A stretch of DNA of 64,000 nucleotides, taken from contig JACPCV010000005.1 of NCBI GenBank assembly GCA_016184345.1, positions 4,634 to 68,633 on the forward strand, read 5' to 3'. Below are positions 1,325 through 42,296 of the stretch, in pieces. The stretch is from Candidatus Woesearchaeota archaeon. Its GTDB lineage: Archaea > Nanobdellota > Nanobdellia > Woesearchaeales > UBA10216. The position numbers and the translations under genes are program-made. The notes under the pieces are model-generated. The model made no database searches. It saw nothing but the letters and a program-made list of their open reading frames with translations, and was not told where the DNA came from. Each line of letters begins with the position of its first letter. The stretch's first letter is position 1.

Positions 1325-2025
1325 ACGGTGCTGTTTACGCTTATCAGGCTGATGCTTCTTCTCTTAGTGGCGGTTCAAAAGTTGGCAGTGCTTCTGTTGC
1401 TGTGAGTGGTAGTAGCATTGGCTTGTTTGATTTTTGGGTTGATAAGGATGGTGTGGAGTATGTTTATGTGAAGGATAATCGTGAGCAAGTGTTTGATGAT
1501 GATGGCGACAGCCAGCTTTCTGGCTGTGGGGTGGGTAGTGGTGTTTATTCTTCTAAAAAGGGGTTGATTGCGCCTTGGCCGAGGATGGTTGTTGATTTTT
1601 ATGGTTGCGCTGGCAGCTTCTGGGGCGGTCCTGTTATTGCCAGGGAGGGTGGGAAGAGCTATTACGTTTGGGGTGAGGAGGTGAATAACCGGAATTCTGT
1701 GCCGGATCCGCCTTTCGTTAGTGCTTACGTTGTCAGGGTTGCGGTGAAGGGCGGAGGGGCGTCCCAGCTTAATACTGTAGGGAGAGCAAATGGAATTAGC
1801 ACAATTCATGAGGCGGTGGTTAAAGGCGGCCTTGGTGCTGCTGTTGTTAACGGCGTGGTTTATTACTCTTACATAGCTTCCAGTAGCCAAAGCAGCGGGG
1901 TTAACATTGCCACTTTTAACCCTGCGAACAGCGCTGACGGCGTTGCGTTCGGCAGCAGTATGAGCGGTTATGCTTCTGGTAGCACTAGGCTTGTGAGCAG
2001 GCAGTCCTGTGGCTGCTGTTGGTAG
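1306..2025 (+). CDS. Surface protein segment 2 (Ser/Gly/Val-rich, beta-rich); no convincing own start
   Basis: Overlaps segments 1 and 3 in other frames; same composition. Confidence 0.55.
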   Translation: MRAWLLNGAVYAYQADASSLSGGSKVGSASVAVSGSSIGLFDFWVDKDGVEYVYVKDNREQVFDDDGDSQLSGCGVGSGVYSSKKGLIAPWPRMVVDFYGCAGSFWGGPVIAREGGKSYYVWGEEVNNRNSVPDPPFVSAYVVRVAVKGGGASQLNTVGRANGISTIHEAVVKGGLGAAVVNGVVYYSYIASSSQSSGVNIATFNPANSADGVAFGSSMSGYASGSTRLVSRQSCGCCW

Positions 2026-3202
2026 TGGCTTTGTTGTTGGCAGGCCGGGTTTTGCTCAGGTTTCCTGCAGCGGCGGTCAGGAGGAGTTGAGTCAGAAGGT
2101 TGCGAGCAAGAACGTGATTGACACTCAGTTTCAGGATAGCAAGGGTGAGAGGAAGGCAACAACCAAGCTTCTTCCGAATGAGGAGAGGTGTTTTGGTGAT
2201 GATTTGAATGAGCAGTTTTTTGTGAGAACTAGGGATTGCAAGGTTGGAGCGTGTGCAAGCAGCTTGTTTGATAGGGTGTTGTGTGATAAGCAGAGTGATT
2301 GTGTTTATGCTGGGAAGTGTTACTCTGATGTTAAGTTGGTGGCGTCAACTTTTTTCAGTAATGATTTGGCTGGCGTGTGGGGTTCGAATTGGAAGAGTGA
2401 GGTAGGTGCTGATGTGCATGGTGATGGGAAGGTTGAGTTTTGTGATCCGGGGCAGTGGCAGAACCCGGCAGGGGCAGTGGCTGGAACAGTAACTGATTCC
2501 GCCACAGCCGCTTCAATTGGCGGGGCAGCGGTGAACTTGGTTGGAACGCCTCCGAACCAGGCAACGGCGTATTCGGCCACGACTGCAGCAGACGGAACTT
2601 ACATGGTAAGCAGCGTTGATGCTTTTACTTATGATGTGACAGCGTCAAAGTCCGGCTACGTTGATGTTGTGAAGGCAAATCAGCCTGTGCAGCCTTTCCA
2701 GACGAATGTTGTTGATTTTCAGCTTTTGCTGGCGGCTGGGAATGTTGTTGGCACGGTCAGGAACTTTACTAATGAGCCGGTTGGGGGAGCAACAGTGAGG
2801 CTGCTTGGCACTGGTTTTGCAGCTGTGACCGCGGCAGATGGAACATACCTGATAAGGAACGTTCCGATTGGCGCGTATGATATTTCAGTAAGCAAGCCGG
2901 CTGATGGCTACAGTGATGCTACAGCGCTTGGCGTTGAGCTGGTATCCGGGGCAGTGACTGTTGACTTTACTATCCTGTTAAGTTTGGGAAGCTGTACGAA
3001 TGACTGCACAAAGGCAGGCTCGAACATTTGTGATGCAAGCTGCAACGGTAAAGGCTCGTGCAAGTTCTACAGCGAAGAAACAAAGCAGGCTTGTGATGGC
3101 ACTTTTGGCATCATTGGTCTGTCAGGGGGGAGGCAGGTTAGCTGCTGCAAGGGCCAGCCGTATACTCCAATTAAGGCTGATGTACCGGACAATAAGCCTT
3201 AG
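2009..3202 (+). CDS. Surface protein segment 3 with two carboxypeptidase-regulatory-like (Ig-like) domains and Cys-rich tail
   Basis: Two repeats G.V.GTV......IGGA.V.L....TAADGTY.......YD...SK..GY. Confidence 0.7.
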   Translation: MAAVGSGFVVGRPGFAQVSCSGGQEELSQKVASKNVIDTQFQDSKGERKATTKLLPNEERCFGDDLNEQFFVRTRDCKVGACASSLFDRVLCDKQSDCVYAGKCYSDVKLVASTFFSNDLAGVWGSNWKSEVGADVHGDGKVEFCDPGQWQNPAGAVAGTVTDSATAASIGGAAVNLVGTPPNQATAYSATTAADGTYMVSSVDAFTYDVTASKSGYVDVVKANQPVQPFQTNVVDFQLLLAAGNVVGTVRNFTNEPVGGATVRLLGTGFAAVTAADGTYLIRNVPIGAYDISVSKPADGYSDATALGVELVSGAVTVDFTILLSLGSCTNDCTKAGSNICDASCNGKGSCKFYSEETKQACDGTFGIIGLSGGRQVSCCKGQPYTPIKADVPDNKP

Positions 3203-3253
3203 CCTAATACTATGATTATTTTTATAGCGGTTCTATAGGTCTTTTAGGAATGC

Positions 3254-3261
3254 TTTTATAT
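3254..3261 (+). promoter_or_regulatory. Archaeal TATA box for the structured RNA at 3283
   Basis: TTTTATAT about 25 nt upstream of the closing stem; a second TTTTTATA near 3473 can serve glmS. Confidence 0.5.
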
Positions 3262-3282
3262 GCGGCTGCCTTGCTTAGTTGC

Positions 3283-3469
3283 AAGGCGGCATGCAGAATA
3301 ATGCTTCTGGAGCCCAAGTCGAGATACGCTCGACTGGGCTCAGTCAGCCGTAAAGCTGACTAGAGCCTCAACACCTCATGACCTTCTTAAAAAGAATGTC
3401 ACCGGAAAGGTGACATCCTTCGGCTATTAGCCGAAGTAAGGTCAATCAAGAAACTATGCATGCCGCCTT
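3283..3469 (+). ncRNA. Unidentified highly structured RNA (~185 nt)
   Basis: 13-bp closing stem AAGGCGGCATGCA/TGCATGCCGCCTT enclosing hairpins 3310-3341, 3342-3361 (GUAA-type loop), 3396-3416 (GAAA-type loop), 3418-3436; no ORF. Confidence 0.65.
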
Positions 3470-3511
3470 AACTTTTTATATACGCTGTCTTTTCGGGTTG
3501 TGTGAGTCAAC

Positions 3512-5320
3512 ATGTGCGGAATAAGCGCTTACATTGGCAAGAAGGATGCAGCGGGTGTTGTTCTTGAGTGCCTGAAGAAGCTTGAGTACAGGGGCTATGA
3601 CTCCTGGGGCATTGTTGCGCTGAGAGGCAGCACTGGCAGCAGCCCAGGCAGCTCGTTTTCCGTAATAAAGCGGATTGGCAAGATAGGCGGCGTAAACAGC
3701 AGCTACCTGAAGGAAGCCATAGGTGAGGACAGCCGCATTGCCATAGGCCACACCAGGTGGGCAACCCACGGCGGGGTAACAGAGCAGAACGCGCATCCCC
3801 ACTTTGACTGCAAAAAGCAGTTTGCAGTAGCCCACAACGGCATTATTGAAAACTACCAGGAACTGAAGGAAGGCCTCCTGGCAAAAGGGCACATCTTCTC
3901 ATCGCAAACGGATACAGAGATAATCCCGCACCTTATTGAAGAAGCGGCGACCACAGCAAAGGATTTTCCCGAAGCTGTAAGGGAGGCTTCCAAGCTGCTT
4001 AAGGGGAAATCAGCGTTTGTTGCAGTCAGCGCCTCGCTGAGCCAGATAGCGGTTGTAAGGAAGGGTTCTCCCCTGATTATAGGCGTGAATGAGGGCGATA
4101 ACAGCGAGTTCTATGTTGCATCAGACATCAACGCATTCCTTGAATACACGAACAAGGTCATGTACCTTGATGACAATGAGCTGGCGGTTATTGATGGCGG
4201 AGTGAAATTTTTTAGCATTTCAACAGGCAACGAGGTTGCGAAGAGGGTTGTCCAGATAGACTGGCACCCGGGAACAGCCCACAAGGGCAGCTACAACCAT
4301 TTCCTGATTAAGGAGATAATGGAGCAGAAGGACACGCTTGCCAAGGCAATAAACCAGGATGACGTGAAAATCCTGACTGTAGCTGAGCTGATAAAGAGCG
4401 CCTTCGGGACATTTTTTGTTGGCTGCGGCACAGCCGGCAAGGTCTGCATGGCAGGTGAGTACCTGTTTTCCAAAATAGCGCGGAAGCACGTCAATTCTGT
4501 TGTTGCATCGGAGTTCTCCAACTACCAGCACTACCTGACAAATAAGACGCTGATGGTTGCAATCTCGCAAAGCGGCGAGACAGCTGACGTCCTTGAGGCG
4601 ATTGACACAGCCAAGTCAAAAGGAGTAAAGGTGATATCGCTGCTCAACGTGTTCGGCTCCACAATGATGAGGGTAAGCGATGACTTCTTCATGGTCAACG
4701 CCGGAGCTGAGCGTGCGGTAGTAAGCACAAAGGCAACCACAGCCCAGCTTGCCGTGCTGACCCTGCTTGCTTACGCTACGGCAGGCAAGCTGCAGGAGGG
4801 CAAGCTGCTCTTAATAAACGCTTCAGCAGCAGTCAATGACATGCTCAACCCGCGGTATGACGAGCACATAAGAAAGCTCGCTGGGCTTCTTGCAGTAAGG
4901 AAAGAGACCTTTATCATCGGCCGCGGCCTGAACTACCCGATTGCACTGGAAGCAGCAATAAAGCTGCAGGAAACATGTTACATGCACGCCCAGGGCTTTG
5001 CAGGCGGGGAGCTGAAGCACGGGCCGCTTGCGCTTATTGAAGAAGGCACGCCATGCATAGCCATCGTTGCGAATGACGAGACAAAAAGTGACATCATAAG
5101 CAACGCAATGGAGGTAAAATCCAGGGGCGGCTTTATAATCGGAATTTCCCCCCAGAACAATGAGGTGTTTGACTACTGGCTCAGGGTTCCAGATGCGGGC
5201 AACGCCAGCCCGATAGTCAACATAATACCTGTTCAGATACTCGCCTACCACCTCGCGGTTTTGAAAGGGTGCGACCCGGACTACCCCCGCAATCTGGCAA
5301 AAAGCGTGACGGTGAAGTAA
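3512..5320 (+). CDS. glmS: Glutamine-fructose-6-phosphate aminotransferase
   Basis: MCGI N-terminus, LEYRGYDS, GHTRWATHG, SQSGETAD, GELKHGP, PRNLAKSVTV. Confidence 0.98.
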   Translation: MCGISAYIGKKDAAGVVLECLKKLEYRGYDSWGIVALRGSTGSSPGSSFSVIKRIGKIGGVNSSYLKEAIGEDSRIAIGHTRWATHGGVTEQNAHPHFDCKKQFAVAHNGIIENYQELKEGLLAKGHIFSSQTDTEIIPHLIEEAATTAKDFPEAVREASKLLKGKSAFVAVSASLSQIAVVRKGSPLIIGVNEGDNSEFYVASDINAFLEYTNKVMYLDDNELAVIDGGVKFFSISTGNEVAKRVVQIDWHPGTAHKGSYNHFLIKEIMEQKDTLAKAINQDDVKILTVAELIKSAFGTFFVGCGTAGKVCMAGEYLFSKIARKHVNSVVASEFSNYQHYLTNKTLMVAISQSGETADVLEAIDTAKSKGVKVISLLNVFGSTMMRVSDDFFMVNAGAERAVVSTKATTAQLAVLTLLAYATAGKLQEGKLLLINASAAVNDMLNPRYDEHIRKLAGLLAVRKETFIIGRGLNYPIALEAAIKLQETCYMHAQGFAGGELKHGPLALIEEGTPCIAIVANDETKSDIISNAMEVKSRGGFIIGISPQNNEVFDYWLRVPDAGNASPIVNIIPVQILAYHLAVLKGCDPDYPRNLAKSVTVK

Positions 5321-19984: not shown

Positions 19985-20689
19985 TTACGGCTGTAATCGC
20001 ACAATGTCCCTGAGCTTTTTCAGCTTTCCGATTACCCTCCTGGTATCTTCAAAGTAAAGCTTTGCGTACGTTTCTGCAACGTTGGTTAACCCTTCAATGT
20101 ACGGCCGCAGCCCTTTGCCCTGTTTCTGCAGCTTCGAAGTGTCACGGACTCCTTCAAGGTCTACCTTGACGGTCCTTACGCCATTCCTCCTGCAATAAAA
20201 GTTTAGTACGGCCTCAAGCCCATACTTGGCCGAGCGCGGATCAGCGCAAACAGCCCTGAGGTGCCTTGTGGGCAGTGCGCGCTCGCCGCTAAGCAACAGA
20301 ATCATCAGCTTTTTCTTTAGCACCTTGCTCCCGAAATGCCAGTCCTTGTCCCTGAGCCCTATTGTCATTATGTTGGGGTTTTTCTTCAGGGGGTCCAGCA
20401 GGGCAGCAACGCTGTCGTGGCGCAGCCCATTAAGGTCGGCATCGCACATGAGTACAAACTTTGTGGTAACATGCGCCAAGGCCATCCTCACTGATTCGCC
20501 CTTGCCGGCGTTCTTCCTGTTAGAGATGAGCTGCACGTTAAACTGTTTTATGATTGCCTCGCTCCCGTCTGTTGAGCCGTCATTCACAACTATGACCTTG
20601 CGTATTTCTGGCGAAGTCGTGAGAACTTTAAGCACGTTGCCGACTGTCCTCTCCTCGTTATAGCATGGCACAATTGCAGTGGCGTTCAT
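19985..20689 (-). CDS. Glycosyltransferase family 2
   Basis: IVPCYNEE, VNDGSTDG, NAGKGES, CDADL. Confidence 0.92.
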   Translation of the reverse strand: MNATAIVPCYNEERTVGNVLKVLTTSPEIRKVIVVNDGSTDGSEAIIKQFNVQLISNRKNAGKGESVRMALAHVTTKFVLMCDADLNGLRHDSVAALLDPLKKNPNIMTIGLRDKDWHFGSKVLKKKLMILLLSGERALPTRHLRAVCADPRSAKYGLEAVLNFYCRRNGVRTVKVDLEGVRDTSKLQKQGKGLRPYIEGLTNVAETYAKLYFEDTRRVIGKLKKLRDIVRLQP

Positions 20690-20718
20690 TTTTGGATTAG
20701 CCTGCTCTTAAAATGAAA

Positions 20719-20937
20719 TGGACTCGCCGGGACTCTCTCACTGGCGTTCGGGGCGCAAATCGCTGATGCGATTGTGCCCAGTCGGTTTTTCACCGACTTG
20801 GGTATTGTCCCTCCCGGGCGCCAATATTTGAACCCGGAGCCTCCACCTTTTAAGGACTTTTTGGTCGAGCTTTTTGGTGAGCTTGCGAACCAAAAAGGTC
20901 GTGCGAAGGTGGCGTCATGCGGTTAGACCACGAGCCC
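20719..20937 (-). tRNA. tRNA-Ala(CGC) with two introns: 53 nt at 37/38 (20849-20901) and 94 nt at 59/60 (20733-20826)
   Basis: GGGCTCG/CGAGTCC with G3:U70, TT-CGC-A, CCGGG-TTCAAA..T-CCCGG; mature length 72. Confidence 0.9.
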
Positions 20938-42263: not shown

Positions 42264-42296
42264 TTTCTTGATTGACCTTCTTTTCTAAAGAAGGGC
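42264..42296 (-). repeat. Hairpin+tail element copy 2 nt upstream of tRNA-Gly (antisense to the tRNA)
   Basis: GCCCTTCTTT-AGA-AAAGAAGGTC-AATCAAGAAA. Confidence 0.8.

Follow-up and report, generated by a model that had tools for sequence, protein, structure and literature searches.

The window analysed here is a stretch of 64,000 nucleotides (nt) from the Candidatus Woesearchaeota genome G000 (C6:4634–68633), whose assembly comprises 884 kb in 6 contigs and is 85% complete. We describe a structured element at positions 3283–3469 of this window, on the + strand between a promoter and the gene glmS. A first, sequence-only reading had proposed a novel multibranch RNA of about 185 nt at this site. 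The locus is composed of the following features, where P1 and P2 denote the stems and SD stands for Shine-Dalgarno sequence:

3247–3261, + strand: promoter GGAATGCTTTTATAT with B recognition element (BRE) and TATA box, conserved across the family (f1) and located 21–23 nt ahead of the stem in all genomes of the genus (g1)
3283–3295, + strand: 5' arm of P1, AAGGCGGCAUGCA, with the predicted 5' end of the RNA
3299–3309, + strand: invariant block UAAUGCUUCUG, of which GCUUCU is invariant; 5' strand of a possible short P2; resembles the promoter box AATGCTTTTATAT
about 3310–3362, + strand: insertion 1, a cassette of twin bulged hairpins (3313–3338 and 3339–3365)
3364–3377, + strand: seed AGCCUCAACACCUC, an invariant, mostly unpaired segment of the loop
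3378–3454, + strand: insertion 2 ("module A"), a hairpin-plus-tail unit, ATGACCTTCTT..AAGGTCAATCAAGAAAC, whose loop encloses two nested hairpins
3457–3469, + strand: 3' arm of P1, UGCAUGCCGCCUU
3473–3482, + strand: T5 run (3473–3477), a probable archaeal termination signal, overlapped by a second TATA-like box TTTTTATATA
3500–3506, + strand: SD-like GUGUGAG ahead of glmS (GUGAUUG in most orthologs)
3512–5320, + strand: glmS, encoding glutamine--fructose-6-phosphate aminotransferase, with GATase_6 and two SIS stretches

The closing stem of 13 bp is formed by AAGGCGGCATGCA (3283–3295), which is perfectly complementary to TGCATGCCGCCTT (3457–3469), in agreement with the sequence-only reading. The + strand of 3283–3469 folds with a minimum free energy (MFE) of −89.9 kcal/mol, compared with −46.6 ± 4.4 kcal/mol for 200 shuffled sequences (z = −9.9). 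The MFE fold contains the internal hairpins that had been described, at 3313–3338 and 3342–3361 and in a three-way unit at 3380–3446. Their loops are GNRA-like only in a loose sense, with actual sizes of 5–6 nt (AUACG, CGUAAA, GGAAA, UAUUA). Since the minus strand folds equally well, the strand is not decided by folding alone. Upstream of the stem, the expected TATA-like sequence TTTTATAT is located at 3254–3261, 22 nt ahead of P1. The second TATA-like box, behind P1, is common to G000 and G001 only. A hairpin between GCTGCCTTGC (3265–3274) and GCAAGGCGGC (3281–3290), which had been regarded as a competitor of the closing stem, is indeed present, with a 5' arm that would probably fall ahead of the transcription start.

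A search of Rfam with cmscan, at gathering thresholds as well as at E ≤ 10, returned noise only. The best below-threshold scores were a partial match to sR23 (E 1.7) and one to the EBNA IRES (E 5.5). Signatures of the glmS ribozyme, RNase P and the signal recognition particle are absent, as had been stated before, and the RNA is non-coding and uncatalogued.

For a comparison within the family we extracted the glmS upstream regions across f1. In g1, a genus of groundwater Woesearchaeota to which G000 belongs, a core of the element was found at the same position upstream of glmS in nine other species genomes (G001, G002, G003 and G005–G010) and on the metagenome contig L115. Together with G000 these form a set of 11 sequences. 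Most versions are hairpins of 65–90 nt with a single large loop. The multibranch shape of about 185 nt, previously taken as the functional unit, is not what is conserved; its branches are lineage-specific insertions. The parts of the core always follow the same order: a promoter (..AATGCTTTTATAT), a spacer of 21–23 nt, a stem of 9–13 bp, the loop, the 3' stem arm and usually a run of at least five T. This run is found after P1 in 8 of the 11 sequences and is missing from G003, G008 and G002. Across the orthologs the loop reads UAUGCUUCU-(0–7 nt)-A(G)CCUCAACACCUC-(variable).

Covariation was analysed in an alignment of the 11 sequences from which the inserts had been removed (A1). RNAalifold predicted 11 pairs for P1, six of them with compensatory changes. 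According to our own tally of the pair table, the non-Watson-Crick cells of P1 comprise about 13 G.U and 2 A.C; this bias argues for an RNA on the + strand and for a constraint at the RNA level. Homologs and covariation are among the points on which, according to the sequence-only reading, an RNA at this site depends, and both were found. A second stem, P2 (GCUUC/GAAGC-type), appears in the MFE folds of 7 of the 11 orthologs, with changes on one side only. Two other identities were considered for the conserved element and rejected. A box C/D small RNA (sRNA) would require C (RUGAUGA) and D (CUGA) boxes, of which A1 contains no conserved copies, and the sR23 match mentioned above is partial. 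An inverton disagrees with the single orientation of the element in all 11 sequences, with a segment of only ~45 bp and with the G.U bias of the repeat mismatches.

A covariance model of the core, run over 26 family genomes, found the RNA once in each of the nine other g1 genomes that have the locus, at glmS in every case (E-values of 5e-7 to 6e-24). The intact, insert-bearing locus of G000 reached E 0.1 only. No significant match was obtained away from glmS in the 26 genomes. Scanning 300 genomes of the order for the pattern GAGCCTCAACACCTCATGACC with up to three mismatches yielded two chance matches in coding sequence, and the RNA therefore appears to be confined to one genus. In 21 other families of the order, the region ahead of glmS showed no comparable leader. 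Pattern scans of metagenome and genome collections contributed L115 as the one further ortholog among the matches listed.

The blocks of the loop are nearly invariant, while the first 129 residues of GlmS are only 52–73% identical, which indicates strong selection on the sequence itself. Exceptions to the invariance of the seed in A1 are G002 (AACC) and G010 (CACCUU). The seed has a mean unpaired probability of 0.70 in the 195-nt form of G000 and of 0.63–0.91 in the orthologs, compared with 0.34–0.51 for the rest of the RNA. These predicted values are consistent with the accessible, conserved seed of an sRNA directed against ribosome-binding sites. We thus regard the single-stranded segment at 3364–3377, which lies between the inserted modules and had been overlooked so far, as the likely functional heart of the RNA.

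The two insertions of G000, the twin bulged-hairpin cassette and module A, which together contribute three mobile hairpins, flank the seed on either side without touching it and hence give rise to the multibranch shape of this version. G009 and G007 read GCTTCTGAAAGAGCC without insertion 1, and the cassette is absent from the orthologs. At the position of module A, a variant is present in G007, other hairpins were found in G002, and the remaining orthologs have no insertion.

Both insertions belong to repeat families, as judged by a BLAST survey of G000 itself and 60 relatives. The hairpin at 3313–3338 has many copies in G000 and its relatives. Three more copies of module A with a length of 76–77 nt are present in G000 (86–92% identical), and many others in G001, G004, G005 and G009. 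Module A can be described as a hairpin-plus-tail unit whose loop holds, in some copies, two nested hairpins. Its tail has 53 matches in G000, mostly in short loop-less units of the form (C)ATGACCTTTTT-loop-AAAAAGGTCAATCAAAAAC. Hairpin-plus-tail units also form introns at the canonical position of tRNA-Arg genes and abut the 5' ends of tRNAs in antisense orientation. Compensatory changes occur in the stems of these repeats. The inserted modules thus show dispersed copies, a conserved head, tail and stems, and variable loops, as is typical of a repeat family.

Within the window, the 16-mer AAGGTCAATCAAGAAA occurs exactly twice, at 3438–3453 (+) and 42264–42279 (−), where shuffled sequences let expect 0 copies. 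The hairpin CCCAAGTCG..CGACTGGG is present at 3313–3338 (+) and at 20777–20802 (−), the second copy lying within an apparent intron in a tRNA T-loop. The earlier suggestion that the RNA collected palindromic elements therefore holds, the same modules being present in tRNA introns and in many copies in G000 and the genus. In this lineage, mobile hairpins that seed tRNA introns can enter a functional RNA without destroying it.

Two side observations concern these repeats. At C2:222530–222558, C2:153583–153613 and C2:136331–136360 of G000, short hairpin-plus-tail repeats have direct duplications on their flanks that repeat the neighbouring gene's start (18 nt, AAACTAAAATGTGCGGCA; 12 nt, ATGAACTGCCCC; and 15 nt within a diverged duplication of ~40 nt). 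This suggests an insertion with long target duplications near the 5' ends of genes. Furthermore, positions 20680–20920 (−) of the window contain a multi-intron tRNA gene that is reported by neither Rfam nor ARAGORN. An intron of ~100 nt, which contains the hairpin CCCAAGTCGG..CCGACTGGG and a second hairpin, interrupts its T-arm (GGGTTCAAAT...TCCCGG), and a unit of the hairpin-plus-tail type is located upstream.

The promoter at 3247–3261 is shared with relatives that have no leader. In the genera g4, g5, g6, g10 and g12 the same promoter is located ~25–30 nt before the ATG of glmS, without an SD. From this we conclude that the element arose between the glmS promoter and glmS. The box would represent the ancestral glmS promoter of the family, now probably driving the small RNA. 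An SD-like GUGAUUG precedes the ATG of glmS in the genomes with a leader and is absent in the leaderless genera, so that at least some glmS mRNA starts upstream. The sister genera g9 and g3 have a leader of a different kind: its 5' end, (GU)AUGAACACCUCC, lies 21–23 nt after the TATA box and is followed by a covarying hairpin of 12–13 bp and a T-run.

Some further features were noticed in this region. Ahead of the TATA box, some 50 nt are conserved family-wide (3205–3261 in the window, and orthologs). This stretch contains two boxes at a distance from each other, TTTTTAATGG.. and TTTTAnnAATGC.., which may form the site of a regulator or else a divergent promoter of the DUF99-like neighbour gene of relatives. 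Look-alikes of the promoter box AATGCTTTTATAT(G)CGGCTGCC (3247–3261) are found in the loop of the RNA (AATGCTTCTG.., 3299–3312) and after the RNA (CTTTTTATATACGCTGTC, 3472–3490), which hints that the locus perhaps grew by promoter duplications. In g9 and g3 (leaders L034, L036, L037, L038 and L039 of G022, G018, G012, G025 and G024) an open reading frame (ORF) of 18–21 codons, MNTSVAAA.., begins at the predicted 5' end of the leader and stops within or just after the SD of glmS. It is open in all five genomes, which is not statistically compelling. For g1 a leader peptide was rejected, because the conserved block is read in differing frames and G006 and G005 have an early stop. In the window, the RNA is preceded by a gene (2009–3202, +) for a protein of 397 residues that contains two CarboxypepD_reg-like domains and whose C-terminus is Cys-rich; relatives do not have this gene as their upstream neighbour.

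The seed led us to a candidate target. Its 12-nt complement, GAGGTGTTGAGG, is found at one orthologous site in 8 genomes, where about 1.4 chance occurrences are expected over all 11 genomes; three non-orthologous matches were counted across the same 11. The site reads GAGGUGUUGAGGCUUG and consists of the SD GAGGUG, a 7-nt spacer and a UUG start codon. The ORF that begins here comprises 1150–1470 codons and encodes a protein with a class-III (type IV pilin-like) signal (..LFSQKKG|AIYSLVLL..). This protein carries 61 N-X-S/T sequons in 759 residues, three times the compositional expectation.

The seed is a perfect 14-nt complement of this initiation region in seven genomes. In G010 the seed and the target site both differ, and pairing is kept via G.U. 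When the 5' untranslated regions (UTRs) of the target genes are aligned, the promoter and the 16-nt target site are the sole invariant islands in otherwise indel-rich sequence. The target protein occurs only in g1 (9 of 11 genomes), g9 (4 of 4) and g3 (1 of 1), which are precisely the genera that carry a glmS leader. Nine other genera (10 genomes) lack the protein; none of them shows the leader, and in three of them glmS itself was not found. The gene aglB/STT3 is present in 10 of 11 genomes of the genus, in four of them on one contig with the target gene and ~10 kb away from it. Additionally, a membrane-protein gene with the same orientation as the glycoprotein gene is located ~6–7 kb downstream of the latter (L369, G006:C1:~13120; L370, G008:C14:~15505). 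It begins with GCGGUGUUGAGGCUG.. (AVLRLFVLVAV..), of which 12 nt overlapping the start are complementary to the seed, and might be a third target.

The sister genera show how seed and site change together. The 5' end of the g9/g3 leader, (GU)AUGAACACCUC, is complementary over 11–15 nt to the target site of the same genera, GAGGUGUUCAU(AC), before the AUG. Duplexes within a genus have 11–15 contiguous pairs and energies of −23 to −35 kcal/mol. Duplexes between genera are limited to 8–10 pairs and −13 to −18 kcal/mol, while shuffled seeds average −11 to −15 kcal/mol. By a formal count in the concatenated alignment, 135 of 140 cells of the 14 central intermolecular pairs are paired. Three adjacent pairs are changed on both sides (CG to UA, CG to AU and CG to GC). 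The intermolecular covariation amounts to 0.232, compared with 0.03–0.10 in slid registers, and was not reached in any of 500 shuffles. These values suggest that the complementarity to the SD and start region is kept by co-variation. The 3' end of 16S rRNA, taken from four relatives (no 16S gene is contained in the G000 assembly), is canonical (GGAUCACCUCCU) and pairs with the target sites over 6–7 nt only. The RNA is therefore a better partner for these sites than the ribosome.

A second candidate target is the gene of the S-layer protein (PF05124 and TIGR01564, both above cut-offs). Its initiation region is invariant in g1 (GGAGGUGUUGAGA-GUG) and complementary to the loop over 11–14 nt. In g9 and g3 the invariant part is shifted upstream (CACGGAGGUGUU) and matches 12 nt of their own leader; this pairing overlaps the base of the terminator hairpin. 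The leader of G024 reads CCUCUG and forms 9 contiguous pairs only. In the leaderless genera the region reads GGAGGUGUUUAGA.

Based on these results we favour, with somewhat more confidence than doubt, a small RNA that is transcribed from the glmS promoter and covers ribosome-binding sites on the mRNAs of envelope proteins. This reading builds on the conservation of the core, its covarying stem and its strand, the single-copy linkage to glmS, the modular insertions, and a complementarity that co-varies across genera. Transcription from the ancestral glmS promoter would cover 3283 to about 3477 and end, at least partly, at the T5 run; read-through past this run would yield the glmS mRNA. The core of the RNA would consist of the long P1 and a large apical loop displaying the seed AGCCUCAACACCUC, perhaps complemented by a short P2. 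Pairing of the seed with the region from SD to start codon of cell-envelope mRNAs would block ribosome binding, with the sequon-rich surface protein of 1150–1470 residues as the strongest target and the S-layer protein as the second candidate.

GlmS supplies glucosamine-6-phosphate (GlcN6P), the entry to UDP-N-acetylglucosamine (UDP-GlcNAc), which in turn feeds archaeal N-glycans. As glmS makes the amino-sugar precursor of these glycans, the synthesis of the glycosylated envelope would be tied to the activity of the glmS promoter. We consider the element a new, previously undescribed RNA family of a known kind, which is restricted to one genus and has an analogous leader in two sister genera.

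Several points weigh against this interpretation. Transcription, the ends of the RNA, pairing in vivo, its repressive outcome and the physiological logic are all deduced from sequence. The main target gene and aglB are absent from the 85%-complete assembly of G000, most simply owing to an assembly gap; the aglB-glycoprotein region of this genome, if it exists, would carry GAGGTGTTGAGGCTTG. The target gene is also missing from G001. In G003 (L328, C23) it has a short 5' UTR from which the site is deleted, and the RNA of the same genome keeps the seed intact. The seed of G002 is interrupted by an insertion. The S-layer site of G000 (−22 kcal/mol, 11 bp) is not among the best duplexes genome-wide, chance coding sites scoring better; a search for trans targets by complementarity within G000 gave this site and chance coding matches only. 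The number of independent events is small, as the covariation rests on essentially one split (g1 versus g9/g3) and a few single changes. The CACCUC/GAGGUG part of the complementarity is of the generic anti-SD/SD type. Finally, the invariant GCUUCU block is unexplained by the model. It would be either the 5' strand of a weak P2 or the relic of a promoter duplication (ATGCTTCTATAGAGCCT resembles ATGCTTTTATATGTGCCT).

The best-surviving alternative, to which we assign a minor but real likelihood, is a purely cis-acting leader of glmS. It would work as an attenuator or in a riboswitch-like manner, with the loop binding a metabolite (e.g. GlcN6P) or a protein and thereby setting read-through. That the loop is complementary to surface-protein genes would then be a by-product of mimicking an anti-SD. 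The position of the RNA between the ancestral glmS promoter and glmS suits this idea, given that the leaderless genera have the promoter directly before the ATG. So do the SD before glmS, acquired in the genomes with a leader, the stable hairpin followed by a T-run, which resembles a terminator, and the fact that the g9/g3 leaders offer no room for a second promoter. However, an aptamer would need a conserved internal structure or a pseudoknot, and the loop contains neither. P1 was the only stem predicted with compensatory changes and the loop is predicted to be open, although the power of 11 sequences is low. A cis anti-SD model, in which the loop pairs with the SD of glmS, was rejected, because the duplex energies are at the level of shuffled sequences in 8 of 10 genomes (z from +0.8 to −1.4; exceptions are G006 with −2.6 and G024 with −3.0). 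A leader acting in cis also leaves the 14-nt match, the cross-genus co-variation and the co-occurrence with the target gene unaccounted for. Roles in cis and in trans are compatible, and the RNA may do both.

A bolder version of the masking sRNA is a two-way switch, for which the odds appear rather low. Here, the leader would couple amino-sugar supply to the demand for envelope glycoproteins in both directions. Terminated transcripts would silence the translation of the S-layer protein and of the giant N-glycosylated protein, and abundant target mRNAs would titrate the leader and thereby affect read-through into glmS. The mobile intron-like hairpins that land next to the seed would be tolerated there, or might even serve as scaffolding. 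If true, such a switch would be the first regulatory RNA circuit to be defined for DPANN archaea.

As a further alternative, the 12–14-bp motif GAGGTGTTGAGG could be a DNA operator to which a transcription factor binds, placing glmS and the envelope genes under joint control, and the stem an incidental inverted repeat. We consider this improbable. The same motif is indeed found at three functionally related loci, and the loop contains a promoter-like box, ATGCTTCT, that resembles AATGCTTTTATAT. At both targets, however, the motif spans precisely the SD, the spacer and the start codon, 70–100 nt downstream of the TATA box, which is an odd place for an operator. Moreover, the orientation of leader versus target is antisense in every genome of both genus groups, and the G.U bias of P1 indicates a constraint at the RNA level.

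That the element is a functionless pile-up of mobile palindromic repeats in an intergenic spacer is very improbable. About 130 of the 187 nt (3310–3362 and 3378–3454) are copies of genome-wide repeat families, but the remaining core is single-copy, syntenic and strongly conserved and has a covarying stem next to a GlmS that has diverged to 52–73%, so the idea is contradicted by the orthologs. A tRNA-derived or tRNA-like scaffold that gained introns, which the sequence-only reading had offered as one of two possibilities, is hardly credible. The 7-bp GGCGGCA/TGCCGCC is like an acceptor stem, and the modules are shared with tRNA introns, but the supposed D-arm pairing (CAGA/TCTG) is lost in orthologs (G007 reads CGGC there), no T-arm or anticodon arm assembles once the inserts are removed, and neither the tRNA model RF00005 (E ≤ 10, 3150–3560) nor ARAGORN gives a match.

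The proposed masking of ribosome-binding sites by a glmS-promoter RNA provides a concrete, testable sRNA-target pair that was obtained from sequence data alone. Among the full-text papers searched, none was found to describe a regulatory RNA of DPANN archaea, and, to our knowledge, few archaeal sRNA-target pairs have comparative support. If confirmed, the pair would show how, in a minimal and host-dependent archaeon, the making of the glycosylated surface is adjusted to the amino-sugar precursor available.

The closest functional analogs are sRNA154 (via its loop 2) and sRNA41 of Methanosarcina mazei, archaeal trans-acting sRNAs that mask ribosome-binding sites (PMC5867862). Like these, the glmS-leader RNA is an intergenic archaeal sRNA with an anti-ribosome-binding-site sequence in a loop and a proposed repression of several functionally related mRNAs. 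It has no relation to them in sequence or structure, belongs to a DPANN host and is fused to the promoter and leader of glmS. Furthermore, its seed spans SD, spacer and start codon over 14 nt, its proposed targets are envelope glycoproteins, and it is known from sequence alone. A circuit of glmS and cell-envelope precursors is also controlled by sRNAs in Enterobacteriaceae, namely GlmY and GlmZ (PMC2267818, PMC4152352). The likeness is limited to this setting. GlmZ is encoded elsewhere and activates the translation of glmS, whereas the RNA described here is made at the glmS promoter itself and appears to act on consumers of the pathway product; the two are not homologous.

With respect to its biogenesis the RNA would resemble SreA and SreB of Listeria, leader sRNAs that are terminated by a riboswitch and act in trans, with read-through giving the mRNA. 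In both cases premature termination of a leader would release a trans-acting sRNA. The differences are that the glmS leader contains no recognisable aptamer and would be terminated in the archaeal manner at oligo-T. With the glmS ribozyme (RF00234) it shares the position of a structured RNA directly upstream of glmS. Unlike the ribozyme it has no Rfam match at E ≤ 10 and no double-pseudoknot core, it is archaeal, and its conserved form is much smaller. The inserted modules are comparable to REP/REPIN and RPE repeats, being short, multicopy and hairpin-forming and occurring between genes, within RNA genes and, in frame, within coding genes. They differ from these in that they also constitute tRNA introns and bracket the seed of the G000 RNA; we know of no enzyme that mobilises them. 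Compared with these systems, the unusual features of the glmS-leader RNA are its linkage to glmS, the long seed that reaches from SD to start codon, the envelope-glycoprotein targets and its tolerance of the mobile hairpins of tRNA introns.

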